From a plasmid: a DNA stretch of 64,000 bases. Position numbers and translations under genes: made by a program. The notes under the pieces were generated by a model. The model worked only from the letters and a program-made list of their open reading frames with translations. It was not told the DNA's origin and made no database searches. Positions 34,361-60,199 of the stretch are shown one piece after another (the stretch's first letter is position 1; every line of letters starts with the position of its first letter). The stretch is taken from sequence record NZ_CP025192.1. One strand, given 5' to 3'.

Positions 34361-34399
34361 CGGGTCTCCGGTCTCATACGCGGAATCTGCCCTGGCTCC

Positions 34400-34409
34400 T
34401 TGCGAACGG
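34400..34409 (-). promoter_or_regulatory. instance of the recurring motif (coding-strand CCGTTCGCAAGG), 40-49 bp upstream of the dotL-fragment operon start
   Basis: One of at least seven intergenic occurrences of (A/T)TGCGAAC(G/A)G and its complement inside the T4BSS cluster. Confidence 0.45.
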
Positions 34410-34415
34410 CGCCGC

Positions 34416-34928
34416 TCAGGGTGTGCCCCTGGACCCCGTGCCGCTGGTCCGGTCGCGCAGCCGCAGGACCTGGGTCAGCACCTGGCGCAGATAGCGGTCC
34501 TTGTAGACCTCGGTGCGGGAGTGGTAGCGGCCGACACCCTCCCAGAAGTCGCCGCCGGCGCTGTCGAGGGCCGTGCGAAGGATCCAGGCGCCCGCCTCGA
34601 CATTGGCGCAGAAATTGTTGAGCAACGCCTCGCGCGCGGCGGCGACGCTGGTCCCCCAGCGCCGGGCGATGGCCGGCAGGTGGATCTCGTTGATCTGCAT
34701 CGGGCCGATATCGACCGTGCCGTTGGTGTTGCCGCTGGTCCGGCCGATCGAGCCGCCCTCGACCGCGAGCAGCACCGCGATCACGCCCGGTGGCACCCGG
34801 TGCAGCGCCGCCGCGGCGCGGATGCACTCGGTCACCGCCGTCACCGTGGCGTCGGAGACGTCGTCTGCCCTGGCTTGCCCCACCAGGAGGTAGGGGAGGA
34901 TGGCGGCAGCCAGCAGGGTGGCTCTCAT
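34416..34928 (-). CDS. lytic transglycosylase (SLT domain), VirB1/TrbN-like
   Basis: Signal peptide. SLT motifs AVEGGSIGRTSGNTNGTVDIGPMQIN and AGAWIL. Confidence 0.8.
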   Translation of the reverse strand: MRATLLAAAILPYLLVGQARADDVSDATVTAVTECIRAAAALHRVPPGVIAVLLAVEGGSIGRTSGNTNGTVDIGPMQINEIHLPAIARRWGTSVAAAREALLNNFCANVEAGAWILRTALDSAGGDFWEGVGRYHSRTEVYKDRYLRQVLTQVLRLRDRTSGTGSRGTP

Positions 34929-35351
34929 GGGCTGGCTCCCGGGGCCGGGCGCCGGGGTGGGGAGGCCTCCGCGCGCAGCGTGCGCCAGACCTCGGCGAAG
35001 TCGTTGACGACCAGCGCGGTCGGGCCGCCGGTCCGGTGGATCGCCTCCAGCGCCGAGAGGGCGACCACCGTGAAGGGCTCGCCCCGCACCCCTGCCACCC
35101 GGTAGCCCAGCAGCGCGGCGGGATCGCGGTGCTGCTCGACGCCCAGCCCGCGCCCGGTGGCCGCCTGCCAGACGGCGCCGGCGGCGGCGAGGATGCTGGG
35201 CATCACCCCGTCCGGTGCGCCGGCCAGATCGGCGGGCAGGCGGTGCAGCCGGCCGGAACCCTCGTCGCGCAGCAGCAGGGGCCGGCCATCGCGCTCGACC
35301 ATCGCCTGCAGGGCGCGGCCGAGCCGGTCGAGATCCAGGGGCGGGCTCATG
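34925..35351 (-). CDS. hypothetical cytoplasmic protein (142 aa) in the icmS position after icmT
   Basis: Start at MSPPLDLDRLG. Sits between icmT and the SLT gene. Family not recognised. Confidence 0.45.
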
Positions 35352-35597
35352 CCAGCCTCCGGCGGCGCCAGGCGGGGACGGCGGGCCGCAGCCGGCCGAC
35401 CAGCCAGCGGCGCAGCACCCGCAGCAGCGCCGGCACCGTCAGCCCGAAGAAGCTGATCGTGCCGAAGAACACGGTGCCGGCGAGGGCGACGTAGAGGGTG
35501 GCCCAGCTCCAGTAGACCACGAAGCACAGCACCGGCAGGCAGGCGCGGGCGTCGAGCATGAGGATGCGCACGGGCAGGGCGGTGTTGCGCCACATCA
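35347..35597 (-). CDS. icmT: IcmT/TraK-family small membrane protein
   Basis: 83 aa. MWRNTALPVRILMLDARACLPVLCF fits the IcmT N-terminal WRDSARxxRFFxLDAR pattern, followed by TM helices. Directly downstream of dotB, as in dotDCB-icmT and traHIJK. Confidence 0.65.
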
Positions 35598-38216: not shown

Positions 38217-38256
38217 GCGGGACCTCCGTTCCTATGCGTGAAGCATGGAGCGGAGC

Positions 38257-38267
38257 GATGCGAACGG
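38257..38267 (-). promoter_or_regulatory. recurring motif GATGCGAACGG, 41-51 bp upstream of dotD
   Basis: Same motif. A second inverted copy lies at 38341-38350 and a partial one at 38295-38303 in the same intergenic region. Confidence 0.45.
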
Positions 38268-38373
38268 GAGGCCTCCCTTTGCAGCTGCGGGCTCGTTCGC
38301 CGACCTGTCAGGCTGACGAGGACGGGGCTACGAATCCTGTGTTCGCATCGAACACGGCCCCTATGCGACGCGA

Positions 38374-41300
38374 CTATTCGGCCGCCAGCTTCTGGGAAGG
38401 CTGGCCATGATCGGGCGCCACGTCCCGCAGGACGATGCCGAGGCCTTTGCCGTCGATCAGCTCGGCGGCGATCTCGTCCACCACGCCGGCTTCGGCGCGC
38501 GTGTCCAGCTCGCCGAGCTTGAGCCGCTCGTTCTTGCGCCGCTCGATCTCCTTCACCGCCGAGCCGCGCTTGAACACCTTCGCCAACCGCCGCAGCGCCT
38601 CCGAGAAGCCCAGGGCCGCATAGAGGCGGTTGCGCAGGCTGGTGTCGCCCGGCGTGGTGCTCAGCGCCCACAGCTCGACCGGGCCCAGCGAGTTGATGAG
38701 CATCTGCTCGTACTTGGCACCGCCGGCGGTCAGCACCGCGAGGAAGGGAGCCCCGTTCGGTCCCGGGCCGTTGAGCGCATAGCGCACGACATCCGCACTC
38801 GCGGCCGACAGGTCGAAGCGCGTGATGATCTCTTCGCGCTCCTTCTCGTCGCCGGTCCGCAGGATGAAGCGCCCGGTGCTCTGGGCGACGATGGCCTCGC
38901 CCATGTCCTCCAGCCGCTGCGACGAGAAGCCGAGCTGGATGTTGTGCTTGCGGCCCTCGCGCACGTCGAGCTCGGCCTGGGCGCGGACCAGCGGGCTGCC
39001 CCTGGTGCGGTGCCACTCGTCGTAGTCGAGGCGCTTGACCGCCTCCATCACCTCCTGGAACCGCTCGCGGTGGTAGTCGCGCACCGGCTCGGGGACGAAC
39101 TGCGCGTAGTCCGGGTGCAGGAAGAAGTTCCGCGCCAGCAGATGCCGCGCCAGCATGTACATCAGCTCGGTCTGCCGGTTCGCCGCCGCCGAGCCGGCCG
39201 GAGCCACCGCGGCGAGGTCGAGCACGATGATGCGGGCCGGGCCGAAATCCAGGCGGGTTGGCCGGCTCAACGAGGGAAAGCGCCGGATCAGATCGTAGAC
39301 GTAGCGCTCGAACAGGGTGCAGGCGGACTCGCTGGTCTCGGCGATATGCAGGTCCTTGAAGGCGTCGCGGATCTGGTCCGAGCGGGCGGCGGCGATCAGG
39401 TCCTGCAGCACCGGCACGGCATGGCGCTGCGCTACCTCGGCCAGCCGCATCTCGCCGGCGCCGATCAGCGCATCCACGGCGTCGCGCCACCAGGGGGTAT
39501 CGCCGGGCAGGACGAGCCCGTGGCGGCGCAGCGCGGCATCCACCTCCGGCTCCACGCCGGCCCGGTAGGGCTTCGGCGAGCCGCCGGTGACGTCGGTGCA
39601 GAGCCGGTAGGCCTCGTCGATCACGGCGCCGATCAGCTGCGCCATGCCCTCGAAGGGAGTGGAGGTATCCGGGGGCGTGGTGGCCAGCGCCAGGAAGTTC
39701 TGCAGGAAGGACCGCTCCAGTGGCAGCGGGTAGTGGCAGCCGACCTGCAGGTCGAAGATATTGACCTCGTAGCCCGGCCCGAACTGCATGGTGACGAAGA
39801 TCGCCTCGTGCTCGCGCGCGGGGCCGAGCGCCTCGCGCACCAGCCGCACGAAGCCCTGCGCCGAAGGGCCGATATCGGCCTTGCCGATCAGCGGCAGCCT
39901 GGCGCCCTTGACCCCGAGCACGGCGGGGCTGAGCACCAGGCCGAGGTTGATGCAGTTGGCCAGCACCGACTTGCCGGAACCGGGCGGCGCCACGAAGACG
40001 TCGCAGACGAGCGGGCGCTTGTCGCCGCCGGAGGGGTCGTAGGGCCAGATGGCGCCGTCGGGCCGGCGGAACAGCACCGAGCCCTGCTCCCAGGGCGAGG
40101 CGGTGCGGTTCCAGGGCAGCATGGCGAAGGCGTCGCCCAGCAGGGCGATCTGCGGCGTGCCGGTCGAGGTGAGCGACAGGCCGGGGACGCTGGACAGCGC
40201 CCCCTCCAGCGGATCGCCGGCGATCGGGGTGGTCTTGCAGTTGCCCCAGCCCTCGATGCGCTGCGCCAGGGTCGAGGCGCGACGGCGCAGCAGCCGCATC
40301 TCGCCGGCCGGGGCCCAGGTCGCGAAGGAGGCGCGCAGCCGCACGCCGATGTGGTTGTCCTCGTTGCGGGCCTGCCGCAGGGCGTCGAAGGCGCGCCGGA
40401 TATCGGCGTTGCCGGGGAACATCGAGAAGAAGGTCGCGGCGACCTCCTTGATCTGCATGGCGTTGCGGCCGCCGCCCTCGATCACCACGGCGCTGCGCCA
40501 GGGGATGCGGTCCTGGCCCAGCCGGGCGGAAAGCTCGACGAAGGGACGCGGATCCTCGGGCCCCACCGCCATGTCCACCGGGGCATAGTCGTGATCGCCG
40601 ATGCGGACGCGCTGGCCCCCCAGCGTCTCGGCATCGGCATGGAACATCTGCTCGGCCACGGCCGGCCACAGCATGCCGGCGGTGGGGCTCTCGCCGCCAT
40701 CGGGATCCTCGGTCGCCCGCGGCATCACCCGGTCGCCCGGCAACGTCGCCTTCCAGTCGGAGCCGGCGGTTTCGCGGTAGACGGATTCGCGGATCACCCT
40801 GAGCGCCTCGTGGGCATCCAGTTCGCGGGTGGCGACGTCGTTGTTGCCGAGCGACGCGACGACCCGCGAGACGAAGGCCGTGTGCCGCGCCGCCATCACC
40901 TCGGAGCGCAGGTAGTAGCGCTGGCTGTTGCCGGCGCGCGGCCCCTCGCGCGAGAGGACCTTCTGCTCCTCGGCCATCTGCCGGCGCTCCTCCTTGGTCA
41001 GGACAGCGCGGCGGGTCCAGAGCACGTAGTAGGCGGCCTCCCAGCGCATGATCCGGGGCCACAGCGCCGCGCGTTCCTCGAGCACGTCCGAGACGTTGAG
41101 ACCGAGTTCCCGTGCGATGGTGCGGCAGGAGGCGAGGTTCAGCCGCTCGATCTCGACCCCGGCCATGTCCGGGTCGGAGACGTACCAGCCGACAATGGCG
41201 TGGCCACGGTCCTCCAGCGCGCCCGCCAGGTCGATGCGCTGTGCCGTGGCGATGCGCTCGACGTCGTCGCGCTTGGCCATCCGCCGCATGCCCTCGATAC

Positions 41301-41445
41301 GGACCACGCTGAGGTAGTCGCATTGGCGCGTCACCAGGGCGTCGCCATGGGCGGTCTCGATCTCGCAGAAGGCCGGCAGCGGCTGGCGGAGAACCAGCGA
41401 CAGGCCGGCGAGGCCACGGGTGATGGCGGTGGCGATCATGCGGCC
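38374..41445 (-). CDS. dotO: DotO/IcmB ATPase (TraU-like)
   Basis: 1023 aa from MIATAIT. Walker A PPGSGKS. Size and composition of IcmB/DotO. The overlapping 1039-aa ORF in another frame is rejected. Confidence 0.8.
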   Translation of the reverse strand, partial: GRMIATAITRGLAGLSLVLRQPLPAFCEIETAHGDALVTRQCDYLSVVRIEGMRRMAKRDDVERIATAQRIDLAGALEDRGHAIVGWYVSDPDMAGVEIERLNLASCRTIARELGLNVSDVLEERAALWPRIMRWEAAYYVLWTRRAVLTKEERRQMAEEQKVLSREGPRAGNSQRYYLRSEVMAARHTAFVSRVVASLGNNDVATRELDAHEALRVIRESVYRETAGSDWKATLPGDRVMPRATEDPDGGESPTAGMLWPAVAEQMFHADAETLGGQRVRIGDHDYAPVDMAVGPEDPRPFVELSARLGQDRIPWRSAVVIEGGGRNAMQIKEVAATFFSMFPGNADIRRAFDALRQARNEDNHIGVRLRASFATWAPAGEMRLLRRRASTLAQRIEGWGNCKTTPIAGDPLEGALSSVPGLSLTSTGTPQIALLGDAFAMLPWNRTASPWEQGSVLFRRPDGAIWPYDPSGGDKRPLVCDVFVAPPGSGKSVLANCINLGLVLSPAVLGVKGARLPLIGKADIGPSAQGFVRLVREALGPAREHEAIFVTMQFGPGYEVNIFDLQVGCHYPLPLERSFLQNFLALATTPPDTSTPFEGMAQLIGAVIDEAYRLCTDVTGGSPKPYRAGVEPEVDAALRRHGLVLPGDTPWWRDAVDALIGAGEMRLAEVAQRHAVPVLQDLIAAARSDQIRDAFKDLHIAETSESACTLFERYVYDLIRRFPSLSRPTRLDFGPARIIVLDLAAVAPAGSAAANRQTELMYMLARHLLARNFFLHPDYAQFVPEPVRDYHRERFQEVMEAVKRLDYDEWHRTRGSPLVRAQAELDVREGRKHNIQLGFSSQRLEDMGEAIVAQSTGRFILRTGDEKEREEIITRFDLSAASADVVRYALNGPGPNGAPFLAVLTAGGAKYEQMLINSLGPVELWALSTTPGDTSLRNRLYAALGFSEALRRLAKVFKRGSAVKEIERRKNERLKLGELDTRAEAGVVDEIAAELIDGKGLGIVLRDVAPDHGQPSQKLAAE

Positions 41446-42095
41446 TCCGGGCGGTGGTGGATCATCCTGGGCGCGCCCCAGGCGCGCAGCAGGTCCGGAT
41501 AGATGTCCTCCTTGCCGCGCGGCATCCGGCCGAGCGGCAGCAGGCGGACGCCGCCAAGGAGGTAGGCCCGGTCCTGGTAGGCGCGCGGCGCGAGGCCGAG
41601 CAGCGCGGCGCCGAGCACCGCCGGATCGTGGGTCAGGAGCTTGCTGGCGCAGATCGCCTGGCGGGCCCGGAACGCGGTCAGGGCCCGCCAGGCGGCGATG
41701 GTGGCCGGGCTTTCCCGGCGTGGCAGGATGTCGAGCGTCGGATCGTCGCCCGCCTCCAGCAAGGAGAGCTGGGCGGCGCGCGCGACGGCGAACAGCGCCT
41801 GCTGGCTCATCTCCGGCAGCCAGATCAGGGTCGCGGATCCCTCGGCCGCCGCGGTGTCGAGGTGCTGCGTGAGATGGCAGAGGGTACAGGCCACGGCGAG
41901 GTTGCCGGGCGCGGCGTCGGCCTCGTCGCCGTTCAGGTGGAACCATTCCTGCCGGCCCGCGGCGAGGGCGCCGCAGAACCGGCAGGGAATGTCGGGCACC
42001 GGGGCGGGGTCCACCTTGGTCGCCCGCCGCTCCCGGCAGGCCGCGCCGCCCCAGGAGGACGTATGCGACGACAGCAGGAGCGGCGGGAAACGCAT
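41436..42095 (-). CDS. icmJ: IcmJ/DotN-like Cys-rich protein
   Basis: 219 aa from MRFPPLL. Cys cluster CRFCG...CTLCH. Immediately upstream of dotO, matching the icmJ-icmB pairing. Confidence 0.65.
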   Translation of the reverse strand: MRFPPLLLSSHTSSWGGAACRERRATKVDPAPVPDIPCRFCGALAAGRQEWFHLNGDEADAAPGNLAVACTLCHLTQHLDTAAAEGSATLIWLPEMSQQALFAVARAAQLSLLEAGDDPTLDILPRRESPATIAAWRALTAFRARQAICASKLLTHDPAVLGAALLGLAPRAYQDRAYLLGGVRLLPLGRMPRGKEDIYPDLLRAWGAPRMIHHRPEAA

Positions 42096-42546: not shown

Positions 42547-42613
42547 GATGATCGCTTTCCTGTTCAGGGCCGGGGCGCCGTCGGCGACCCTGCGATGATG
42601 CTGTGCGAGGTCC

Positions 42614-42623
42614 TTGCGAACGG
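42614..42623 (-). promoter_or_regulatory. recurring motif TTGCGAACGG in the icmC-icmD intergenic region
   Basis: Same motif, 68-77 bp upstream of the proposed icmD GTG start. Confidence 0.4.
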
Positions 42624-44584: not shown

Positions 44585-44664
44585 GAGACGATCCTGCTGG
44601 GCGTTGGCCCGCAGGATCGTCCACCCCGACGCGAACGGCGCCCGGGAAAGCCACCGGCCAGGCG

Positions 44665-46969: not shown

Positions 46970-47599
46970 CTATCGGGCGATGGCGACCAGCTGGTCGATC
47001 ATCAGGCCGTCCGGACGATCCTCGTCGTTGGTGCGAACGACGACCGTCGAGATGGTCAGGTTGGTCTGGCTCGTCTGCTGCGAGTTCTCGCAGGTCTGCA
47101 CGATGGGAAACTGCACCGTGTGGCTCAGGCGCCCCCGCACGATCTGCGTGTCGGCGATGGTGGCGGCGCGCTGCGCCTGGGCGTAGCAGACCATGCGCCC
47201 GGCCTTCATCGCCTCGAAGTTGCCGCTGGCTTGGTAGCTACGGGCGAAGCTGTTCCAGCCCTGCAGCGAGAAGCGCCGTCCCGCCGTGTTCAGCTGCGTC
47301 GGGTAGTCGTGATAGTTGACATTATAGGCGGCGAGCACCGCCCGGACCGTCCATTCCAGCAGCTGCGCGTCATCCACGACGGGGCTTTCGAGCGCGCGGA
47401 TCGGCCGCGGCGGGTTGCGACCGTCGACCAGGAAGTAGCGGGTTTCGCTGGGGCGTGTCTGCAGCCAGTAGGAATGCGCCAGCGCCGAGAGGGTGACGAC
47501 GGACATGGCGACCGTCAGGAGGGTGAGGCGATTGACCAGGCGTCCCTGGAACTCCGGATCGCTCAGCCGGTGACTGATCGCCGTGCGCGCATTCTGCAT
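46970..47599 (-). CDS. icmL: IcmL/DotI-like (VirB8-like) bitopic membrane protein
   Basis: 209 aa, one TM helix (LTLLTVAMSVVTLSALA), periplasmic NTF2-like domain. Size and position match IcmL/TraM. Confidence 0.7.
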   Translation of the reverse strand: MQNARTAISHRLSDPEFQGRLVNRLTLLTVAMSVVTLSALAHSYWLQTRPSETRYFLVDGRNPPRPIRALESPVVDDAQLLEWTVRAVLAAYNVNYHDYPTQLNTAGRRFSLQGWNSFARSYQASGNFEAMKAGRMVCYAQAQRAATIADTQIVRGRLSHTVQFPIVQTCENSQQTSQTNLTISTVVVRTNDEDRPDGLMIDQLVAIAR

Positions 47600-47639
47600 G
47601 ACAAGGTTCCATCCTGATGACGGAATCCTCGGTCATGGT

Positions 47640-47650
47640 GATGCGAACAG
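47640..47650 (-). promoter_or_regulatory. recurring motif GATGCGAACAG, 41-51 bp upstream of icmL
   Basis: Same motif, followed 20 bp further on (coding strand) by GATTCCG, as at the 34400 site. Confidence 0.45.
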
Positions 47651-47663
47651 CCACGGATCGCCG

Positions 47664-48949: not shown

Positions 48950-49444
48950 CTACCGCTTGCTGCGGCCACCATAGGGGTTCGATCGTGTTCGCATCGTCCG
49001 GGCTAACTGCACCAGACGATCGATTTCGGCCAGGACCGTATCGAGGTCCTCCAGACGGTGCCCCTCGTCGCTCTCCGGCTGAGATCTCCTGCCTGTCCTG
49101 CGGTCGGGCTCCGGCGCCGTGTCGCGCTGGCCCTCTGTCGCATAGATGGAAGGCAGCAGATCGGCCGGCTCGACGCCAAGGCTTCGGGCGATGCCGAGCA
49201 GGGTCTTGAGCGTGAGGTACTGCAGCCCGTTCTCGACCGAGAAGATCGTGGTGACCTGCAACCCGGCCTTCACGGCCAGCTCTGCCTGGGTCAGGGACTG
49301 TTCAGTCCGGATTTCCCTGATGCGTCTGCCCACGACGGCAAGATAGGGATCGACATCACGCTCCGCGCCGCGAGTGCGGCGAGACGGCGCCGAGGGTACG
49401 GCCGTTGGCGATTGGGTAACCGAGGCCTGCTCGGGCTTCTTCAT
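48950..49444 (-). CDS. XRE-family HTH transcriptional regulator
   Basis: HTH LTQAELAVKAGLQVTTIFSVENG. 164 aa. Confidence 0.75.
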   Translation of the reverse strand: MKKPEQASVTQSPTAVPSAPSRRTRGAERDVDPYLAVVGRRIREIRTEQSLTQAELAVKAGLQVTTIFSVENGLQYLTLKTLLGIARSLGVEPADLLPSIYATEGQRDTAPEPDRRTGRRSQPESDEGHRLEDLDTVLAEIDRLVQLARTMRTRSNPYGGRSKR

Positions 49445-49494
49445 CGGGGACAGGCCGCCCGGCCGTCACGCCCGGGCATCGGACGTCGTGGATG

Positions 49495-49505
49495 CCGTTC
49501 GCATC
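49495..49505 (+). promoter_or_regulatory. recurring motif CCGTTCGCATC, 38 bp upstream of the plus-strand operon start at 49543
   Basis: Same motif in the same orientation relative to the downstream gene. Confidence 0.45.
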
Positions 49506-49542
49506 GGCGAAGGGCAGTGGAGGGAGAAGGAGAACCCACGCC

Positions 49543-49974: not shown

Positions 49975-50046
49975 GCCGGGTGGCTGGCACGCCGTTCGCG
50001 TCGCGCCCTGCCAGCCTGTGCCCTCCTTGGAGAGTGGAGGGGCACC

Positions 50047-53692: not shown

Positions 53693-53749
53693 GCTCATTC
53701 GCGTCGCCCTCTCCCATCCTCGTCTGCAAATTCCGGCCGCGAGGATGCG

Positions 53750-56071
53750 ATGCGACGCCCAACCCTGTTTCTGGCCCTGGCCACCCTGGCGCCGGTCCTG
53801 CTCCTCGCGGGGCCGGCGCTCGCCCAGGGGACGGGCGTGAACCTCAGCTGGTCCGCCCTTGATCCCGGTGACGACTGGGCTGCCATAGTCATCCGCTCCG
53901 TCTTCCCGATCAATGGCTCGGCCGGAACCGTCAGCACCGGCAACGCCGCCACGGTGATCGGCACCCTGGTCCGCTCCCTCACCGGCTTCGTGGCGGCCAT
54001 CGCCATGTTCTACCTCGTCTATTCCATGGTGATGCAGATCTGGCGCGGTGCCGAGACCTCGCGCCTGCTCACCGACGGCATGAGCGGCATGATGGCCCTC
54101 CGTCTCGGGGTGGCGGCGATCTTCATGTTCCCGCTGGCCAACGGCTTCTCCGCCGGGCAGGCCGCCGTGGTGCAGGCCTCGATGTGGGGCATCGGCATGG
54201 CCAAGACCGTCTACACCTCGGCCGTCACGGCGATCGGCGCCGATGCGCGCGTCATCGCCGATCCGATTGTCCCGGGCAGCCGCACCATCGTCGCCGGGCT
54301 GATCCGCAACGAGTTCTGCCGCGCACTCGTCAACGCCGCCGCCAACAACCCCAACCTGGTGCCGGCGCCGGGCGCCATCGCCTCAAGCGGGGTCGGCAGC
54401 GTGCCGGCCTTCGAGACCTGGGCCTACCGCCTGTCCAGTGGCAACGAGAGCGGCGCCCCGGCCTGCGGCACCGTCACCCTGGCCCAGCCGGCCAGCACCA
54501 ACACCGTCGCCGGTGTCGATGTCGGCATGGTCGACCAGCAGCGCCGGATCCTGAACAGCGTCGTCACGGGCAGCATCCGGCCGCAGGTCGAGAGCGCCGC
54601 GCAGGCCTTCTACGCCACCCGCCAGGCGTCGGCGCTGCAGCCACTGCTGGGCGTGCTGACCAGCGCCACCAGCCAGTACAACAGCCAGCTCACGGCGGCA
54701 GCCAGCGGTGCCATGAGCCGCATCCGCGGCTCCCTGCAGGATGCCCGCGGCAGCGGCGCCACCCCGGACGCCACCGCGATCCGCCTGAGCGCGCTCGGAT
54801 GGTCGGCCGCCGGTGCCTACTATCTCGAATTCTCCCGCCTCAACGGCGCCACCCTCTCGCTGATGAGCGGCGTACCGCGCGTCGAGCGTCCCTCCTATCT
54901 GGGCCTCGGCCCGGCCCTCACCGCCGATGTGGCGCCGCTTTCCGCTGCCGCCGAGGCGTTCATGGAGCGGGTCAGCGCCTACGTCGCCACCACCGACCAA
55001 GCCAACACGCCCTTCGGCGGCTCGGGCCTGTTCTCCGGCGCCTCGCCGGCCGAGGACGGCGCCGGCATGATGGAGCGGGTGTTCCGCTCCCTGGGCCTGA
55101 GCGAGCGGATCCTCGGCCTCGTCACCAACTACTTCGTCACCCCTGGTACCTTGGTCTGGATCGACCCGTTCGGCAGCCTGATGCAACTCGGCCACGCCAT
55201 GGTCGCGGCCGGTATGGGGGCGCTGGGGCTGGCGGGGATCGGGGTGGGCGGGTCCAATGCCGTCGGCACCGCCCTGGGCGGCGTGCCGCTGGTGGGTGGG
55301 GTGCTGGCGGCCAGCTTCAGCGGATTGGGCAAGGCGTTGGAATTCCTCGGCCCGGCGATCTTCGCGCTGATCTCCGGCCTGCTCCTCCCCGGCCTGACCA
55401 TCGCCTTCGTGCTGCCGCTCATCCCCTTTCTGATCTGGGTCGCCGGCGTCGCCGGCTGGCTGATCCTGGTCTGCGAGGCGGTGATCGCGGTGCCGCTGTG
55501 GATGCTGGCGCACATGACCATGCGCGGCGAGGGCCTGCACGGCCGGGCCACCGAGGGATACTCGCTGCTGTTCAACGTGCTGTTCCGCCCGGTGCTGATG
55601 CTGCTCGGGCTGTTCCTCGGCTACTTCATCTTCGCCAGCATGTCCTGGCTGCTGCGGCTGAGCTTCGGGGTGGCGGCAGGCTTCGTGCTGGGCAACGGCT
55701 GGATCGTAACCAACGTGCTCGGGGTCGTGGTGCTGCTCTGCGTCTTCGTGCTGGCCCACGTCGTCCTGGCGCTGCTGTCCTTCCGCATGATCTCCCTGGT
55801 GCCCCACCACGTCCCGCGCCTGATCGGCTTCCTGCCGGCGAACCGGGTCGACATGGACGGCTTCAGCCGGGATGCTGCGCTGGTTGGGGCGGCAGGGGCA
55901 TTGCAAAACATCGACGGTGCCGCTCGAAGGCTTGGTGGTTCGGCTCGCAATTCTGGTGATCGAACCCTGGCGCCGACGGCAATAGCTGGACCGCAAGGGC
56001 GGGCAGCAAGTAAGGAGATGGACTCTACCCTCCGGGCATCGACAGAGATCTCCGGCGCTAGGGATGAATGA
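53750..56071 (+). CDS. dotA: DotA-like polytopic membrane protein (TraY-like)
   Basis: Signal peptide, two early TM helices, a large periplasmic domain (about residues 150-520), then 6-8 C-terminal TM helices. This is DotA architecture. Confidence 0.65.
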   Translation: MRRPTLFLALATLAPVLLLAGPALAQGTGVNLSWSALDPGDDWAAIVIRSVFPINGSAGTVSTGNAATVIGTLVRSLTGFVAAIAMFYLVYSMVMQIWRGAETSRLLTDGMSGMMALRLGVAAIFMFPLANGFSAGQAAVVQASMWGIGMAKTVYTSAVTAIGADARVIADPIVPGSRTIVAGLIRNEFCRALVNAAANNPNLVPAPGAIASSGVGSVPAFETWAYRLSSGNESGAPACGTVTLAQPASTNTVAGVDVGMVDQQRRILNSVVTGSIRPQVESAAQAFYATRQASALQPLLGVLTSATSQYNSQLTAAASGAMSRIRGSLQDARGSGATPDATAIRLSALGWSAAGAYYLEFSRLNGATLSLMSGVPRVERPSYLGLGPALTADVAPLSAAAEAFMERVSAYVATTDQANTPFGGSGLFSGASPAEDGAGMMERVFRSLGLSERILGLVTNYFVTPGTLVWIDPFGSLMQLGHAMVAAGMGALGLAGIGVGGSNAVGTALGGVPLVGGVLAASFSGLGKALEFLGPAIFALISGLLLPGLTIAFVLPLIPFLIWVAGVAGWLILVCEAVIAVPLWMLAHMTMRGEGLHGRATEGYSLLFNVLFRPVLMLLGLFLGYFIFASMSWLLRLSFGVAAGFVLGNGWIVTNVLGVVVLLCVFVLAHVVLALLSFRMISLVPHHVPRLIGFLPANRVDMDGFSRDAALVGAAGALQNIDGAARRLGGSARNSGDRTLAPTAIAGPQGRAASKEMDSTLRASTEISGARDE

Positions 56072-56074: not shown

Positions 56075-56524
56075 ATGAACGATGACGGCGAGAGCCAAGG
56101 AATGAGCGGAACGGCCGGCTACCTGCTAGGCAGGATGTCGGCAGAAAACGCTCGTTCGCGTTCGGATTGGGTCGATAATCTTGTGGCCCGTCGGCGGCGC
56201 CCGGAAGCGCGTTTCTTCCGTGAAGCTGATGTACATGCGAAGATCGCTGAATGGCAGGCTGCGCTCGCCTCAAGGGACGCCATCATCGATCAGCTACAGG
56301 AGCATGCTGCTGGTCTCGCCAGCGAGCGGGATCAGTGGCGTGACTACGCGAAGGCGATCGAGGGCGAGCGGGAGGAACTGAAGGAGCAGTTCCGCAGCCT
56401 GACCGTGAACGCCAACCTCATGGTCGAGCGCCTCGACGAGTACGACAGGGCGAACGAGGCGCTGGAGGCGGAAGTCGAGGCGCTGCGCGCCGAGATCGCC
56501 CGCCTCAAGGGCAGTGGCGGGTAG
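56075..56524 (+). CDS. coiled-coil protein (149 aa)
   Basis: Heptad-rich EALEAEVEALRAEIARLKG. Translationally coupled to dotA. Confidence 0.45.
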   Translation: MNDDGESQGMSGTAGYLLGRMSAENARSRSDWVDNLVARRRRPEARFFREADVHAKIAEWQAALASRDAIIDQLQEHAAGLASERDQWRDYAKAIEGEREELKEQFRSLTVNANLMVERLDEYDRANEALEAEVEALRAEIARLKGSGG

Positions 56525-56530
56525 CGCAGG

Positions 56531-56542
56531 CCGTTCGCAACG
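56531..56542 (+). promoter_or_regulatory. recurring motif CCGTTCGCAACG, 39 bp upstream of the lipoprotein gene
   Basis: Same motif and orientation. Confidence 0.4.
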
Positions 56543-56580
56543 ATACTGGGCAGCATGGGGCCGCAACCAGGACAGGCCCC

Positions 56581-56898
56581 ATGCCCTACGCTCGAAACCT
56601 CCTCCTCGCCGCTCTCGCGTCGATCCCACTCGCGGCCTGCAGCAGCGGCAACATCCGCACCGCCGGCAGCTACAGTGCTCCGGCCGCGCCGCAGGTCCAG
56701 AATCCCAACTACGATCCCTATGCCGCTCCGGGCACCGTCAATGCCACCTGGGCGCCGCCCGTGCTCAACCGTAACGGCACCATCGTGAAGCCCAACGATC
56801 CGCGCGGGGCGATGGCCGGCAGGCCGGACTACGAGCATGCCCCGTGGGCCACGGGCGCGGCCGGCGGTGCCACCTACGCCCCACCCGGCACCTTCTGA
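56581..56898 (+). CDS. small lipoprotein
   Basis: Lipobox LAAC after a signal peptide. 105 aa. The recurring upstream motif lies at 56531-56542. Confidence 0.5.
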   Translation: MPYARNLLLAALASIPLAACSSGNIRTAGSYSAPAAPQVQNPNYDPYAAPGTVNATWAPPVLNRNGTIVKPNDPRGAMAGRPDYEHAPWATGAAGGATYAPPGTF

Positions 56899-56921
56899 CG
56901 ACCTGGCGGCCGGTGCGGCGG

Positions 56922-57305
56922 CTATCGGGCCGGCCGCACATCCGTGCGGCTGAAATCGTCGCCGACGTAGAGCAGCGGCGCGTCGTGCTCGATCGCCAGC
57001 ACGTAGGCGAAGCAGTCGCCGAAGTTCAGCCCCGCCGGGTGGACGCCCTTGCCCCAGCGCGCATAGGCCTCGGCCATGCGCCGCGCCGTCCCCGGTGTGA
57101 CGCTCGCGACCTCGAAGCCCAGGCCCTCGACCAGCTGGCGCATCTCCACCCCGAGATCGCGCCGGCCCGCCACGATCAGCGCCTCCGCCATGGTCCCGGC
57201 CGAGATCGCCAGGGCGTCGGCCGCCTCCAGCACATCCATGCAGGCCTCGGCCTCGGGCTCGTCGAGCAGGATCGCCAGCAGCGCCGAGGTGTCGACCGCG
57301 ATCAT
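56922..57305 (-). CDS. vapC: VapC toxin (PIN domain)
   Basis: MIAVDTSALLAILLDEP with the conserved D-T-S opening, plus GDCFAY near the C-terminus. Confidence 0.8.
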   Translation of the reverse strand: MIAVDTSALLAILLDEPEAEACMDVLEAADALAISAGTMAEALIVAGRRDLGVEMRQLVEGLGFEVASVTPGTARRMAEAYARWGKGVHPAGLNFGDCFAYVLAIEHDAPLLYVGDDFSRTDVRPAR

Positions 57306-57559
57306 CGCGGCAGCCCGGCCTCGTCGTACAGATCGTCCTGACTGCGGGCGGCGCTCACGCCGGCCCGTGCCTTGGCGGCACCGACGCGGCGCAGCTCCTC
57401 CATCAGGGCGCGGCGTCCGGCTGCATCCGGTGTCCGGTGCACCGGGACCAGGCGCACGGCGGCGCGGCCATGACGCGTCAGCACGACCTCGTCGCCGGCC
57501 TCGGCCCGGCGCACCAGCTCGGTCAGCTGCCCCTTCGCATCCGTCACGGAGACCTGCAC
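57302..57559 (-). CDS. vapB: Phd/YefM-family antitoxin
   Basis: MQVSVTDAKGQLTELVRRAEAGDEVVLTRHGRAAVRLVP is the canonical Phd/YefM fold sequence. ATGA overlap with vapC. Confidence 0.75.
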   Translation of the reverse strand: MQVSVTDAKGQLTELVRRAEAGDEVVLTRHGRAAVRLVPVHRTPDAAGRRALMEELRRVGAAKARAGVSAARSQDDLYDEAGLPR

Positions 57560-57644
57560 GATCGAACCCCAGCAGAAAGCCTCCCGGCGAAATAGACCAT
57601 CGGGTGGTCCATTTCAACGATGCTGGCGCTGAGTGGTATCGGGG

Positions 57645-58199
57645 TCAGCCGGCGCTCGGCCAGAATCGGTCGGCCGATCGGAGGTACTCCCCGGCCGAGC
57701 CCAGCCGCCGCGTGCGCAGCTGCCAGTTCGCCCAGGCATTGCGGAAGGCGAGCACGAAGAACGCGGCGCAGAAGGGCAGGAACTGCACCGCCGCCCAGAA
57801 GCGTCCCTGGCCTGCGGGAAGCACCGTCATCTGCCAGGTCCATAGCCCCAGCGCGGCCCAGCCGGCCGCGAAGCAGCCCCAGGCCACCCGCGCCGTCTGC
57901 CGGCGCCGCCGCAGCCAGCGCCGCTTCAGCTCGAACTCGGTGAGGCCCATCGCGAAGGCCGTCGCCCCCGGGTCGAGGCGGCCGTCCTCGTCGGCGATCG
58001 GGCCACGCACCGGGGCCGGCTCGCGCCGGATCGCGGCGACGAGGCCCCGGACCAGCCCGTAGCCGGACCGGATCTCGGCCACTCCGGTCGTCTCGGCGGC
58101 CCTGCGAGCCGCCCAGCGGGGGCCGGCGAGTAGCCATCCGAAGCGCCGACGACTACCAGGGTGGTCGCCCTGCAGCCCGGGTCCCAGGTCGATGGCCAT
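57645..58199 (-). CDS. hypothetical membrane protein (184 aa)
   Basis: Two C-terminal TM helices (AWGCFAAGWAALGLWTW, AAVQFLPFCAAFFVLAF). Confidence 0.4.
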   Translation of the reverse strand: MAIDLGPGLQGDHPGSRRRFGWLLAGPRWAARRAAETTGVAEIRSGYGLVRGLVAAIRREPAPVRGPIADEDGRLDPGATAFAMGLTEFELKRRWLRRRRQTARVAWGCFAAGWAALGLWTWQMTVLPAGQGRFWAAVQFLPFCAAFFVLAFRNAWANWQLRTRRLGSAGEYLRSADRFWPSAG

Positions 58200-58202
58200 G
58201 GC

Positions 58203-59372
58203 TCAGCCCCCGGTTGCGGTCGCGACCAGCGCCTCGAGGTTGTTGGGCAGTCCATCCGTCCGCCCCTCCGTGCCATCGGCCCGGCGCCAGACCAGCGTCG
58301 GCGTCCCGCGCAGGCCGATCGAGGCCGCTGCGGCCCCATTCTCCCGCAACCGCGCGGCCGCTTCCGGCGCCGGCGGGGCCCGCAGGTCGCCCCGGCTCCA
58401 GGCGGCGATCATCGCTTCCTCCGAGCGGCTCAGCATCGCGAGCGCGTCGGCGGTGCTCCGCCCGGCATTGTGGTGATCGAGGATGGCCACGGGGATCACC
58501 GACAGGTGCAGCCGGCCGGCCGCGACCAGCGGCTGCAGGCGCCGCAGGGCCTGGACCGAGTAGCCGCACTGCGGATCCACGAACATCCAGACATGCGGCG
58601 CCCCCTCGGGGCCCGCAGTGCCGGCATGGGCTCGCTGGGCCACCGCGACCGGGCTGGCGGCCGGCGCGACTGCCCCGCCGCCGGCACCTTGAGCCGGCCC
58701 GCCGGCCGGCTGCGTCGCACCGGGCGCGACGTCCCCGATGGTGACGGTCGGGATCGCCCCTTCGATGCCCGCCACATGATCGCGGGTGAGGTTCTTGCCC
58801 GCCGTGTCCCACATCACCCCGGGAATGACGCGCTCCCCGTCGGGGGTCGCGTAGAATACCTGGAAGGCGTCGCCGCTGCGCAGCACCACGCTGCGAAGGC
58901 CCTCGCGCTCACCGAGATCCGTGACGCCCGCGCCCCCGATCTCACGGAGACGCGCCAGGGTCAGGTCCACCGGAAAGCCCGCCACCATGGCCCGTCCGGA
59001 AGGCAGCACCGAGAGCAGCATGAACTCGGCGCCGGAGCGGGCCACGACCAGGCGCAGGCCATGGCTCAGCCCCAGGTCCTGCAAGGTGGCACCGGCCTGG
59101 GACACGCGCTGCAGCACCGGCACCGAGAGATCTCCGCCGGGCGTCGCCACCGTGGCAGGAGCTGCTGACGGCGCAGCCGCCGGCGCCGCGGCACGCTGGA
59201 CCGCGGGCGTGGGCGCGGTTGGCCAGGCCTGGGGCGCGGCGGATACCGGAGCCGGGAGGGCCAGGGTGGGAGGCGCATCGGGCCCGGCAGAGGCGGGGCA
59301 GAGGGTCTGCGCCATGGAGATGGCCGGCAGGCCAACCAGGGCGCAGGTGGTCAGGAGGATGCGTCGCATGGG
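58203..59372 (-). CDS. periplasmic thiol:disulfide interchange protein, DsbC/TrbB-like
   Basis: Signal peptide MRRILLTTCALVGLPAISMA. Thioredoxin active site DPQCGYS. R64 TrbB of I-type T4SS is a DsbC-like isomerase. Confidence 0.75.
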   Translation of the reverse strand, partial: PMRRILLTTCALVGLPAISMAQTLCPASAGPDAPPTLALPAPVSAAPQAWPTAPTPAVQRAAAPAAAPSAAPATVATPGGDLSVPVLQRVSQAGATLQDLGLSHGLRLVVARSGAEFMLLSVLPSGRAMVAGFPVDLTLARLREIGGAGVTDLGEREGLRSVVLRSGDAFQVFYATPDGERVIPGVMWDTAGKNLTRDHVAGIEGAIPTVTIGDVAPGATQPAGGPAQGAGGGAVAPAASPVAVAQRAHAGTAGPEGAPHVWMFVDPQCGYSVQALRRLQPLVAAGRLHLSVIPVAILDHHNAGRSTADALAMLSRSEEAMIAAWSRGDLRAPPAPEAAARLRENGAAAASIGLRGTPTLVWRRADGTEGRTDGLPNNLEALVATATGG

Positions 59373-59401
59373 TCTCGTCCGGTGCTGATGACCGGCCGAG
59401 C

Positions 59402-60199
59402 CTAGGAAGGGGCGATGCGAACGGGGCTGTCGTGATACCCCGCTGCCGGGGCAAGGACGACGGGCTCCATGTTGTCGAGCAGCTGGCTCGTGGCCGACAG
59501 GACGTTGAACAACACAGGGGTGAACCAGGGCCGCGTCTCGAAACTCTCGCAGAATTCCAGGCCGCAGAGGAGCACGGCGGCCAAGGCGGTGATACCCGCG
59601 ACGGTGATCGGCGCGGCGAGGGCGAGCTCGTCCAGAACCTCGTCCAGAGGTCGCTGAGCATCGAGGTAGGCCTGCTCCTCGGCGGCGACGTCGCCGGCAC
59701 CTGCCCGCATGAGCGAGCATGCCTGCCGCGAGAGCGCCACGAGATGCAGATCCGCCGACCTGTCGTTCGCTGCCTCGATCACAGCGGCGTCTGACAGAAT
59801 TCGTGACAGGTGAGCATCGAGCGCCACCATGTGGGCGGTCGTCAGAGCCGCGAGACCCTCGTCCGGCTCCTCGTCCCGCCGCATCGAGCAGAGGGTGAGC
59901 AGAATGTCGCTTTGCAGGAGCAGTCCCCGCGCCGAGGTGGGCGACAGGCTCGCCGCATGAAACACAGCGCGTCCCAATCTCTTCTCGACCGCGATATGCG
60001 AGGCGCTGTCTGACTCGCCCTCGTTCGGCCCCGCCCTGCGACGAACCGTCGCCGCCTGGCGGCTCCAATGTTCCCGGACCTGTCCCAGCAGGGCGATTTC
60101 ACGGCGCAGGCTCTCCAGTGCCCATTCGTCGCCGCGTGTACCGATCGGGCCGGGGAAGGTCGTGATCTTCTGTCCGGCCCTGGTCGGGAACATGGTCAC
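59402..60199 (-). CDS. hypothetical protein with a C-terminal TM helix
   Basis: 265-aa ORF with protein-like composition. TM segment ITALAAVLLCGLEF. Confidence 0.35.
   Translation of the reverse strand: MTMFPTRAGQKITTFPGPIGTRGDEWALESLRREIALLGQVREHWSRQAATVRRRAGPNEGESDSASHIAVEKRLGRAVFHAASLSPTSARGLLLQSDILLTLCSMRRDEEPDEGLAALTTAHMVALDAHLSRILSDAAVIEAANDRSADLHLVALSRQACSLMRAGAGDVAAEEQAYLDAQRPLDEVLDELALAAPITVAGITALAAVLLCGLEFCESFETRPWFTPVLFNVLSATSQLLDNMEPVVLAPAAGYHDSPVRIAPS
59414..59424 (-). promoter_or_regulatory. recurring motif GATGCGAACGG, 42-52 bp upstream of the DsbC/TrbB-like gene
   Basis: Same motif and orientation relative to its gene. Confidence 0.45.

Follow-up and report, generated by a model that had tools for sequence, protein, structure and literature searches.

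Genes and predicted promoters of the transfer cluster

The window, a stretch of 64,000 nucleotides of the plasmid record NZ_CP025192.1, was found to contain the genes of a Dot/Icm-type (MPF_I) conjugation machinery (the T4BSS cluster), and nearly every operon of this machinery is preceded by a predicted promoter with a recurring 9-base box (Table 1). The gene names of the operon from dotD to the lytic transglycosylase gene were taken from the related locus L001. A DotM_C domain was found in the product of the gene 32726-33907 and an IcmW domain in that of the gene 50047-50505, and the conserved start of the gene 43187-44584 was found to be ATGGACACCCAC. No prior description of this transfer-gene promoter box was found.

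Table 1. Predicted box promoters, one doubtful site and two regulatory genes of the window
Feature	Coordinates	Strand	Box	Hexamer	Predicted genes served or description
Promoter	32759..32784	-	CCGTTCGCA 32776-32784	CAGCAT 32759-32764	hypothetical gene 32193-32729, coupling-protein gene 29864-32179
Promoter	34384..34409	-	CCGTTCGCA 34401-34409	CAGATT 34384-34389	33904-34359/34377, DotM-like gene 32726-33907
Promoter	38242..38267	-	CCGTTCGCA 38259-38267	CATGCT 38242-38247	dotD-dotC-dotB-icmT-hyp-lytic transglycosylase, 38216 down to 34416
Promoter	42598..42623	-	CCGTTCGCA 42615-42623	CAGCAT 42598-42603	42112-42546, 41436-42095, dotO/icmB 38377-41439
Promoter	44613..44638	-	CCGTTCGCG 44630-44638	GATCCT 44613-44618	43187-44584, 42648-43175
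Promoter	47625..47650	-	CTGTTCGCA 47642-47650	GAGGAT 47625-47630	dotI-dotH-dotG, 47599 down to 44665
Promoter	49495..49520	+	CCGTTCGCA 49495-49503	CAGTGG 49515-49520 (imperfect)	49543-49974; divergent from the XRE gene
Promoter	49992..50017	+	CCGTTCGCG 49992-50000	CAGCCT 50012-50017	IcmW-like gene 50047-50505 and three more genes, to 53692
Promoter	53695..53720	+	TCATTCGCG 53695-53703 (degenerate)	CATCCT 53715-53720	dotA 53750-56071, 56075-56524
Promoter	56531..56556	+	CCGTTCGCA 56531-56539	CAGCAT 56551-56556	56581-56898
Promoter	59399..59424	-	CCGTTCGCA 59416-59424	TAGGCT 59399-59404	58203-59369, 57645-58199
Doubtful site	47015..47040	-	TCGTTCGCA	GATCGT (after N11)	inside dotI at its 3′ end; dotH starts 82 nt further on
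Candidate box reader, 367 aa	47664..48767	-			three helix-turn-helix modules
XRE-family (HTH_3) regulator	48950..49444	-			just upstream of the 367-aa gene in all cases

Occurrence of the box in the window

The exact 9-mer TGCGAACGG was found in seven copies (32776+, 34401+, 38259+, 42615+, 49495-, 56531- and 59416+) against 1.02 expected in the 64-kb window, and none of 100 shuffled sequences reached seven, which confirms the recurring motif that a sequence-only reading had claimed. The sequence ATGCGAAC was found in eight copies against 1.84 expected, including those at ~38341-, ~47641+, ~48987- and ~63668+. The coordinates given in that reading were right to within 1-2 nt, except for a copy placed at 48998, which lies at ~48987, and its statement that the first 28 kb contains no copy was correct, no exact TGCGAACGG being present before position 32775. 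The copies at ~38340, ~48986 and ~63669 were found to be antisense and to lack the hexamer described below.

On the coding strand the box had the consensus YYRTTCGCR, and a hexamer nAnnnT lay exactly 11 nt beyond it. The bipartite pattern YYRTTCGCR-N11-nAnnnT was matched 12 times in the window against 0.34 expected (100 second-order Markov simulations, maximum 2), and the hexamer was present at this spacing at 10 of the 11 window sites. The element GATTCCG, noticed earlier at two sites, belongs to this general second element. All 11 sites were oriented toward a gene start of the T4BSS cluster and lay 39-68 nt ahead of it, the exact box reading CCGTTCGCA on the coding strand. The earlier observation, here confirmed and extended, had overlooked four sites (32776-32784, 44630-44638, 49992-50000 and 53695-53703). 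The recurring 9-base motif is thus real and makes up the upstream half of a predicted two-part promoter.

The box at 32776-32784 was found to be an exact copy that lies inside the DotM-like gene at its 3′ end and precedes the next gene by 46 nt, and orthologues of its promoter were present in L001 (4776), L002 (6763) and L004 (13363). In the promoter 34384..34409 the first ATG was located 6 nt past the hexamer, and its transcript may be leaderless. The site 44613..44638 was also found in L002 (18776), L004 (25781), L006 (17857) and L003 (18254), and the equivalent place of the degenerate dotA box was occupied by CTGTTCGCA in L002 (27831). The doubtful site 47015..47040 was retained only in the close relatives L001 and L003, pattern scans of L002 and L006 giving no match, and the conservation of codons probably accounts for it.

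Geometry of the two-part promoter

The column-wise information of 44 sites showed that the only conserved columns were those of the box, the A at +22 and the T at +26. Among 608 distinct box contexts from all loci, A-N3-T was found exactly 11 nt after the box in 54%, whereas each other spacing tested gave 0.7-3%, except for 8 nt (7.6%). Between the hexamer and the ATG of dotI lay 6 to ~85 nt in the related loci, and over all sites the start codon most often followed the hexamer by 25-29 nt, with a secondary maximum at 5-9 nt. The dotI ATG stood 6-8 nt after the hexamer in about 15 loci, the layout expected of a leaderless transcript if transcription begins ~7 nt after a -10 element. The fixed 11-nt spacing, the variable distance to the ATG and the leaderless loci together therefore identify the hexamer as a putative sigma70-type -10 element, whose start site we infer from these sequence statistics, and the 9-bp box would thus lie at about -32 to -24. 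No canonical TTGACA-like -35 element was found to accompany the box promoters. An ORF of 70 aa or more was present within 110 nt downstream in 89% of 544 distinct bipartite sites from all loci, against 54% in the reverse-direction control.

Conservation and regulon content

About 80 related loci, spread over many genera, contained this architecture of box and hexamer at orthologous positions, while their flanks diverge. The predicted promoter upstream of dotI was kept in about 70 of 80 such loci with unrelated flanks, and matching sites were present in plasmids 76-82% identical in DNA as well as in Lichenicola, Methylosinus and Komagataeibacter. The box variants (for example GTTCGC, ATTCGC, GTTTGC and GGTCGC, with extensions such as ATCG, GCCG, ACGG and tGAT at positions 9-13) were lineage-specific, one variant being common to all 4-14 promoters of a given element. 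This coherence within an element therefore points to a box reader that is probably encoded by the element itself.

The full 179.7 kb of a sister plasmid contained 16 bipartite matches, 11 of them inside the T4BSS cluster. The five matches outside it were found ahead of the mobF relaxase operon, ahead of a DUF3991/TOPRIM-UvrD (primase/helicase) operon and, in three cases, ahead of poorly annotated neighbouring genes, one of them an annotated nuclease. In its pattern of occurrence the putative promoter is shown to be restricted to transfer genes. The earlier suggestion of a dedicated promoter or operator co-regulating the secretion system is strongly supported, in its promoter reading, by the unvarying 11 nt between the box and a -10-like hexamer, by the orientation and position ahead of genes, by the orthologous sites despite diverged flanks, and by the leaderless arrangements that would fix the transcription start.

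The GcrA-like and XRE-family proteins

In the 367-aa protein, residues 84-133 and 256-305 were found to resemble the DNA-binding domain (DBD) of GcrA clearly, and residues 28-72 more weakly. The modules are separated by a disordered linker, and for the conserved C-terminal region no relatives could be detected. The family profile matched GcrA (PDB 7ye1_G) across the DBD with E=5e-4, and hhalign gave probabilities of 97.6% for module 1 against the GcrA DBD, 95.4% for module 2 against the GcrA DBD and 97.3% for module 1 against module 2. The AF2 model contained three 3-helix modules, and Foldseek with the whole model as query was uninformative. The protein falls below Pfam's GcrA threshold, and the sigma-interacting domain of GcrA was undetectable in it. 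Its GcrA-DBD-like nature is shown by these comparisons, and the label of GcrA-like tandem regulator given to it earlier is supported by the profile match and the module matches.

The 367-aa gene was found immediately upstream of dotI in all 86 loci with enough sequence. A sense-oriented box promoter preceded it in only 1 of 81 loci and not in this window, as expected of a gene placed at the top of the hierarchy. The XRE gene adjoined the cluster in 82 of 82 loci, and since both genes occur in every locus, presence or absence cannot separate the two as reader. A mutual-information scan of box variants against protein columns was confounded by phylogeny and protein length. With slightly better than an even chance, the 367-aa protein is the best candidate for the box reader, acting as an oriented activator, and the XRE protein is probably an upper-level repressor above it.

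Proposed mechanism and alternative explanations

The reading that we favour, and hold to be somewhat probable, is that of a dedicated bipartite promoter with an element-encoded, box-binding activator, for which the GcrA-like protein is the best candidate, and with the XRE protein above it. The bipartite element would drive essentially every transcription unit of the MPF_I system. Its hexamer would be a primary-sigma-type -10 that retains only A-11 and T-7, and the box would occupy the usual place of the -35 hexamer and the beginning of the spacer. The activator would bind the asymmetric box in a single orientation, probably as a monomer, and would provide the upstream promoter contact with which the host RNA polymerase and its primary sigma factor initiate, whereas the XRE protein, as a repressor or switch, would determine whether the activator is produced. 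We infer both the identity of the box-binding protein and activation rather than repression; the GcrA-like protein is ranked first as reader, and an XRE global repressor or an unrecognised sigma-like factor is less likely.

The box could instead be the operator of the XRE protein, acting as a global repressor at the -35/spacer region of promoters that are intrinsically active with host sigma70, in the manner of the Kor and TrbA repressors of IncP plasmids. This explanation is in keeping with the constant presence of the XRE gene beside the cluster, with the box at 49495 in the XRE-divergent intergenic region, with box-like copies in or beside the XRE gene (~48986 in the window, 29769 and 29792 in L004) and with the overlap of box and core promoter, a classical repressor position in which the -32 to -24 segment could serve as operator. 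HTH_3 proteins, however, normally bind palindromes as dimers, whereas the box occurs singly, lacks symmetry and keeps a strict orientation, and its information profile shows no inverted partner. The weak -10 without a TTGACA-like -35 likewise makes the box promoters look activator-dependent, and base-pair-rigid spacing to a -10 typifies promoter-recognition elements rather than operators, which leaves an XRE operator unlikely.

Improbable as well is the explanation that a dedicated alternative sigma factor, or a sigma-like protein, reads box and hexamer as its -35 and -10 across an unusually short spacer; an unrecognised protein of the element, possibly the 367-aa protein as a sigma surrogate, could be that factor. 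The fixed spacing within the element, weak Sigma70_r4_2 matches in two members of the 367-aa family (best E=0.0046) and the spread of the system over different phyla, which suits a self-contained promoter code, are in its favour. The hexamer, however, retains exactly the positions read by primary sigma factors, A-11 and T-7, and the sites lack an ECF-type layout, in which AAC would precede CGTT by 16-17 nt. No sigma-factor domain was detected by Pfam in the 20 cluster proteins scanned, none of which contained a sigma region 2 domain; the scan left out the four small proteins 56075-56524, 56581-56898, 57645-58199 and 58203-59369. The gap of 11-12 nt that separates the two elements is also narrower than that of any sigma70-family factor known to us.

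It is very improbable that the motif acts in RNA, whether within the 5′ UTR, as a site of processing or as the target of a small RNA, or that it arises as a side effect of composition or coding, as might be suggested by the sites 34401, 44630 and 56531 right after stop codons between genes of apparent operons and by the site 32776 inside a coding region, since the start-codon distance varies from 6 to ~85 nt whereas the hexamer distance is fixed, the box would stay untranscribed in the leaderless arrangements, no Rfam matches were found, the conserved columns are single bases rather than paired stretches, and the bipartite pattern is in ~35-fold excess over chance.

Comparison with known systems

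The global repressors KorA, KorB and TrbA of IncP (RK2) act on palindromic operators at strong consensus promoters. Many promoters of one plasmid share a protein site at a fixed core-promoter position in both systems, whereas the site described here is asymmetric and its promoters are without a -35. AcaCD (IncC), SetCD (SXT/R391) and BisDC (ICEclc) are element-encoded activators that each switch on many transfer operons by way of a common box near -35, and their own genes are controlled by a repressor; these FlhDC-like heteromers use longer boxes with centres further upstream, in MPF_F/MPF_G systems. The single activator, the shared box and the repressor above the activator gene would be common to these systems and the plasmid, whereas the protein family and the box sequence are unrelated.

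Caulobacter GcrA binds as a monomer, through its DBD, a non-palindromic site of consensus YGAKTCG within the -35/-10 spacer of sigma70 promoters (PMC9976885). The KTCG of this consensus is common to the plasmid box, and a GcrA-type helix-turn-helix DBD is also present in the 367-aa protein (hhalign 95-98%). GcrA contains one DBD module against two to three in the 367-aa protein, in which the sigma-interacting domain is undetectable, and the plasmid box is without the GANTC methylation site. Its spacing is fixed and its centre lies near -28, whereas the position of GcrA sites varies, with centres at -20 or even beyond the transcription start; GcrA is a cell-cycle regulator, whereas the 367-aa protein is plasmid-encoded and would be dedicated to transfer genes.

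The middle promoters of phage T4 contain a sigma70 -10 and a 9-bp asymmetric MotA box centred around -30 that replaces the -35, and are used through MotA and AsiA by sigma appropriation (PMC6755090). No MotA or AsiA homologue was found here, and the plasmid candidate has a helix-turn-helix fold in contrast to the 'double wing' of MotA. The geometry of these promoters matches that of the plasmid box promoters, and in both cases a mobile element would provide the host polymerase with a promoter code that the element itself carries.

Transfer cluster and plasmid family

The window was found to contain 68% G+C, and its 34-59 kb part was 98.7% identical to Roseomonas mucosa p2-HV1 (NZ_CP034926.1; L001) and sister plasmids, from which record the RefSeq gene names used here were mapped over. 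A Dot/Icm-type (T4BSS, MPF_I) conjugation cluster was found at about 29.9-59.4 kb and contained the genes of the coupling protein, a DotM-like protein and a lytic transglycosylase together with icmT, dotB, dotC, dotD, dotO/icmB, dotG, dotH, dotI, an IcmW-like gene, dotA and many hypothetical genes; Pfam matches within it included DotM_C and IcmW. The sister plasmid was found to contain a MobF relaxase, and a Komagataeibacter relative was typed as conjugative, MPF_I and MOBF. The core dot/icm genes and the coupling protein were thus present in the window and the relaxase on the replicon, as seen in the sister plasmid, which is the gene content of Dot/Icm-type conjugation. Two minus-strand regulator genes, encoding a 367-aa GcrA-like protein and an XRE protein, were located between dotI and the divergent icmW/dotA operons.

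A recurring box and its probable regulon

The sequence TGCGAACGG was found seven times in the window against 1.02 expected, a count attained in 0 of 100 shuffles, and ATGCGAAC eight times against 1.84 expected. Every gene-proximal copy was found to read CCGTTCGCA on the coding strand, 39-68 nt ahead of a start codon. The recurrence claimed in the sequence-only reading is virtually certain to be real and non-random, and was stronger than reported there. Four gene-proximal sites had been overlooked (Table). The positions of that reading were correct within 1-2 nt except for a copy placed at 48998, which lies at 48987. Its statement that the motif is absent from the first 28 kb was borne out, the first exact copy occurring not before 32775. 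GATTCCG, described there as a second element at two sites, is merely part of the hexamers CAGATT and GAGGAT.

The 9-base box (YYRTTCGCR) was found to be followed, 11 nt downstream, by a hexamer nAnnnT, the two together being termed the bipartite site. Each transcription unit of the window cluster was found to contain one box promoter. The complete 179.7-kb sister plasmid contained 16 bipartite matches, of which 11 were inside the cluster, so the equal frequency elsewhere that would have spoken against the motif was not seen. One of the five outside sites was located ahead of the mobF relaxase operon and another ahead of a DUF3991/TOPRIM-UvrD helicase operon, and the three remaining ones preceded neighbouring genes with poor annotation (a nuclease in one case). 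The motif was therefore not spread over the replicon and marks the mating-pair-formation and DNA-transfer genes. Two of the five outside sites, separated by 31 nt, were divergent.

Against the box promoters, two gene starts in the RefSeq annotation of the sister plasmid looked questionable. For the gene that follows dotG, the probable start is at ATGGACACCCAC, 59 codons ahead of the RefSeq start as mapped and kept in three relatives (L002, L004 and L006). In the other gene, 6 nt separate the hexamer from the first ATG, pointing to a leaderless start; an in-frame second ATG was preceded by a Shine-Dalgarno-like GGAG. A VapC/Phd toxin-antitoxin pair within the cluster was flanked by two box-driven units and contained no box of its own, and near the FIST-domain operon small genes preceded by A/T-rich DNA were found to lack a box.

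Table. Positions of box promoters, box-like copies and associated genes (L001, L003, L004 and L009 are related plasmids; the four overlooked sites are among the promoters listed)
Feature	Record	Position	Strand	Remark
Promoter	window	32784		one gene and coupling protein
Promoter	window	34409		two genes
Promoter	window	38267		dotD-C-B-icmT-hyp-LT
Promoter	window	42623		two genes and dotO
Promoter	window	44638		two genes
Promoter	window	47650		dotI-H-G
Promoter	window	49495		one gene
Promoter	window	49992		icmW and three more genes
Promoter	window	53695		dotA and one more gene
Promoter	window	56531		one gene
Promoter	window	59424		two genes
Overlooked site	window	32776		exact copy in DotM-like gene end, 46 nt ahead of next gene
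Overlooked site	window	44630		CCGTTCGCG
Overlooked site	window	49992		CCGTTCGCG
Overlooked site	window	53695		TCATTCGCG, ahead of dotA
Sites outside cluster (L090-L093)	NZ_CP034926.1	18827, 147800, 150144, 152112, 152143	-, -, +, -, +	
Doubtful bipartite match	window	47032-47040		inside dotI
Chance bipartite match	window	17310-17318		antisense in tyrosine-recombinase-/integrase-like CDS
Gene after dotG	window	43187-44584		probable start 44584, mapped RefSeq start 44407
Gene with first ATG near hexamer	window	33904-34377		ATGs at 34377 and 34359
GcrA-like gene (367 aa)	window	47664-48767	-	
XRE gene	window	48950-49444	-	XRE/HTH_3 by Pfam
VapC/Phd pair	window	56922-57559		
Small genes without box	window	60245-61247		
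FIST-domain operon	window	61456-63620		adjoins cluster
dotD-dotO intergenic region	window	38268-38376		
Partial box copy	window	~38297-38304		CGTTCGCC, no hexamer
Inverted box copy	window	38340-38348		TGTTCGCAT, no hexamer
dotD-dotO cargo	L001	10338-10998		PIN/Phd
dotD-dotO cargo	L003	11254-11906		AbrB/VapC
dotD-dotO cargo	L009	21691-25272		HipA and other genes
Box-like copy	window	48986-48994	+	inside 3' end of XRE gene
Box-like copies	L004	29769-29800	antisense	XRE gene or its downstream gap
Box-like copy	window	63669-63677	-	TCGTTCGCA, then GATCCA at 11 nt; kept at L001 36414

Conservation across related loci

The box sites were found to recur at orthologous intergenic positions within differing surrounding sequence in Roseomonas plasmids (L002, L003 and L004; 82% and 76-77% identity), a Lichenicola plasmid (L006), a Methylosinus plasmid of another order (L008; box ATTCGCR) and a Komagataeibacter plasmid (L009; box YYGGTCGCA). 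A DotI alignment scan with one genome per species gave 80 further loci, and about 70 of them contained the box, 11 nt and nAnnnT upstream of dotI amid otherwise unrelated sequence. The loci spanned Roseomonas, Acidisoma, Acidisphaera, Rhodopila, Roseiarcus, Methylocapsa, Methylosinus, Methylocystis, Beijerinckia, Acetobacter, Komagataeibacter and Novacetimonas, as well as several contigs binned to Acidobacteriota. On these last contigs (Terriglobus, Granulicella and Terriglobia; some of 618 and 841 kb) the dotI/GcrA-like/XRE arrangement was found with the box, and one locus was on a contig binned to Solirubrobacterales; these loci (L017, L038, L051, L054, L058, L067 and L074) reflect either cross-phylum spread or a binning error.

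The box variants were lineage-specific and common to all 4-14 promoters of one element. Most lineages contained GTTCGC, whereas the Methylosinus/Methylocapsa group and some others contained ATTCGC, four loci (L064, L067, L069 and L070) GTTTGC, and Acetobacter and Komagataeibacter GGTCGC. The consensus was also extended to positions 9-13 in a lineage-specific manner, the window and L002 having ATCG, L003 and L010-L015 GCCG, L004 ACGG, Komagataeibacter tGAT and Methylosinus CAGAC.

Architecture of the probable bipartite promoter

When 44 sites of the window and of four relatives were aligned, with seven Methylosinus rows shifted by one base, only three features proved to be conserved, namely the box, A at column 22 (37 of 44) and T at column 26 (33 of 44); upstream of the box no conservation was found in these sites except a weak A/T bias about 8-12 nt before it. 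Primary sigma factors read two bases of a -10 hexamer, the A in position 2 and the T in position 6. The window contained 12 instances of YYRTTCGCR-N12-A-N3-T, where 0.34 were expected from second-order Markov simulations (maximum 2). These comprised ten gene-proximal sites, the match at 47040 and the one at 17318, while the site at 49495 fell outside the 12 with an imperfect hexamer, CAGTGG. The match at 47040 fits the pattern but is doubtful, as it was kept in close relatives only and overlaps conserved codons. Apart from the match at 17318, which is consistent with chance, the first 29 kb contained no bipartite match.

Among 608 distinct box contexts from all collected loci, A-N3-T was found at exactly 11 nt in 330 (54%), and at all other tested spacings in 0.7-3%, except 8 nt with 7.6%. 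Between the hexamer and the dotI ATG, a gap of 6 to about 85 nt was found. This gap was 6-8 nt in about 15 loci, which puts the ATG where the start after a -10 element is expected, and implies leaderless dotI mRNAs there; loci with this short gap included L028, L018, L025, L035, L062, L055, L071, L068, L021 and L030. For the 544 distinct bipartite sites of all loci, the first long ORF lay most often 25-29 nt away, with a second peak at 5-9 nt, and an ORF was found downstream of 89% of the sites against 54% in a reverse-direction control. The 11-nt spacing, the conservation amid diverged flanks and the ATG distances together indicate that the hexamer is a -10 element. Transcription would then start about 7 nt downstream of it, as predicted from sequence, with the box at about -32 to -24, and A2 and T6 with such a predicted start are the features of a primary-sigma -10 element. 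The promoter interpretation of the motif was thereby supported, and the box is very probably the upstream element of a sigma70-type promoter.

An ordinary sigma70 promoter with its own -35 was not recovered, as no TTGACA-like -35 was found 16-18 nt upstream of the -10 in the 44 sites, where the columns read nnnCCG, and a consensus sigma70 scan around the regulator genes (47500-49800) gave no match. An ECF promoter, in which an AAC-containing -35 would lie 16-17 nt upstream of a CGT(T/C) -10 (for EcfG, GGAAC-N16-17-CGTT) and CGTT in the box would be the -10, was rejected, since none of the columns from -44 to -1 ahead of the box was conserved and the A/T pair was instead located downstream of it. 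A LexA-type GTTC-N7-GTTC and a sigma54 -24/-12 promoter were dismissed for wrong spacing or orientation, the aligned sites being judged by eye. No Rfam match was found within 29-64 kb.

Additional box-like copies

The dotD-dotO intergenic region of the window contained a partial and an inverted copy, and neither was matched in the orthologous spacer of L002 in a scan allowing one mismatch. The same spot was found to contain other cargo in relatives (Table), and the spacer looks like an insertion hot spot. The antisense copies at the XRE gene of the window and of L004 were found with poor or absent -10 hexamers and could be due to chance or act as an autoregulatory site or weak antisense promoter. 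A further copy, kept in the sister plasmid, was found just downstream of the FIST-domain operon and antisense into it.

Candidate reader of the box

In all 86 loci with enough sequence, the gene immediately upstream of dotI encoded a homologue of the 367-aa protein, and the XRE gene was found just upstream of the GcrA-like gene in 82 of 82. A sense-oriented box promoter was found in only one of 81 loci for each of the two regulator genes, which places them above the regulon and not inside it. The lineage-specific coherent box variants, the hosts from different orders and apparently different phyla and the asymmetric, single-copy, oriented box argue for a reader encoded by the element itself, which is likely.

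The 367-aa window protein gave no Pfam match at E<=0.01 and did not reach the gathering score of PF07750. Among 1.84 billion representatives, its family comprised 457 clusters (50% identity, E<=0.001); a weak Pfam GcrA match was found in 3 of 10 members tested (best E=0.0025), and some members contained sub-threshold matches to GcrA, HTH_23 and Sigma70_r4_2. The AF2 model was found to contain three helix-turn-helix modules and a disordered linker (mean pLDDT 63, modules 80-92). Foldseek of the full model against the PDB returned generic HTH only (E>1), and, as the long disordered linkers made the model unsuitable, sequence-profile methods were used instead. The family profile matched Caulobacter GcrA in the PDB over the DNA-binding domain (7ye1_G, E=5e-4; 5yiu_A), the alignment covering this domain and the linker only. 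By hhalign, module 1 (residues 84-133) and module 2 (256-305) matched the GcrA DNA-binding domain with probabilities of 97.6% and 95.4%, respectively, and each other with 97.3%, module 0 (28-72) being weaker at about 80%. In the conserved C-terminal part, no similarity to a GcrA chain or other PDB entry was found by profile, and no sigma70 domain-2 interacting domain (SID).

The XRE protein is the other possible reader, and as both genes were present in every locus, their distribution does not favour either. A palindromic XRE/HTH_3 operator was not recovered, as the information profile of the box contained no symmetric partner, and an asymmetric, single-copy, strictly oriented box fits a monomeric reader and not a dimeric HTH repressor. 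The mutual information between box variants and protein columns placed the top columns mostly in the GcrA-like protein, a ranking confounded by phylogeny, length and column entropy. Given the precedent of GcrA (a monomer, a non-palindromic spacer site and a shared KTCG), the GcrA-like protein was ranked the likeliest reader and may well act as the activator. The XRE protein would then be the switch above this GcrA-like activator. The operon adjoining the cluster encodes a protein with the Pfam domains FIST and FIST_C together with its partner of 342 aa, which belongs to no family; both were also found in L002, and the operon could be the sensory input for the switch.

A wider and quite tentative proposal is that of a portable promoter code, in which the repeated GcrA-type (sigma region-4-like) HTH protein would bind a 9-13 bp box near -28 and take over upstream recognition from sigma region 4, so that all transfer operons, including relaxase/primase, would fire only when the protein is made, in any host whose primary sigma reads A-11/T-7. 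Such a code could explain the same system in Alphaproteobacteria and Acidobacteriota-assigned contigs, and the lineage-specific box extensions would prevent cross-activation among co-resident related plasmids, of which R. mucosa strains carry several.

Comparison with known systems

Nothing relevant on the motif, on GcrA-like conjugation regulators or on Roseomonas/Acetobacteraceae T4BSS plasmids was found in the literature searched, which describes neither the motif nor the 367-aa protein family and no regulator or promoter of this widespread Dot/Icm-type plasmid family. The family was found in Acetobacteraceae, Beijerinckiaceae, Methylocystaceae and Acidobacteriota-binned contigs; among its members are plasmids from Roseomonas mucosa, a commensal and opportunist of the skin, and from Komagataeibacter and Acetobacter of industrial use. 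The sites are best described as dedicated transfer-regulon promoters, a kind already known, with a reader that is probably element-encoded. The promoter code helps to predict the transfer regulon in new genomes, to build conjugation reporters, to correct gene starts and to suggest how transfer could be switched on or off.

Transfer regulons under a master activator are known from the IncC, SXT and ICEclc elements; the regulatory logic is similar, whereas the protein and the box are unrelated.

GcrA acts as a monomer, its DNA-binding domain reading a short, non-palindromic sequence between the -35 and -10 of sigma70 promoters, with the consensus YGAKTCG containing the CcrM methylation site GANTC (PMC9976885). 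No other well-studied activator is known to work in this way. The 367-aa protein shares this domain, and the box shares KTCG with the GcrA consensus. However, YYRTTCGCR contains no GANTC, and the protein contains no detectable C-terminal SID and falls below the Pfam PF07750 threshold; with these three defining features of the GcrA family absent, it was named GcrA-DBD-like and not GcrA. GcrA-type activation, known only from the chromosomal cell-cycle regulator, would be extended to mobile elements.

The middle promoters of phage T4 contain a MotA box centred at about -30 (PMC6755090), and the promoters described here resemble the MotA/AsiA arrangement in containing a primary-sigma -10 and a 9-bp asymmetric box near -28 that replaces the -35. 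MotA- or AsiA-like Pfam domains were not found in the 20 cluster proteins scanned, a set that left four small proteins aside and in which remote homologues may escape, so the resemblance lies in the possible working and not in membership. The transfer promoters would be the second natural case of the layout known from T4 middle promoters, and the portable code, if true, would be a plasmid counterpart of the sigma appropriation of phage T4.
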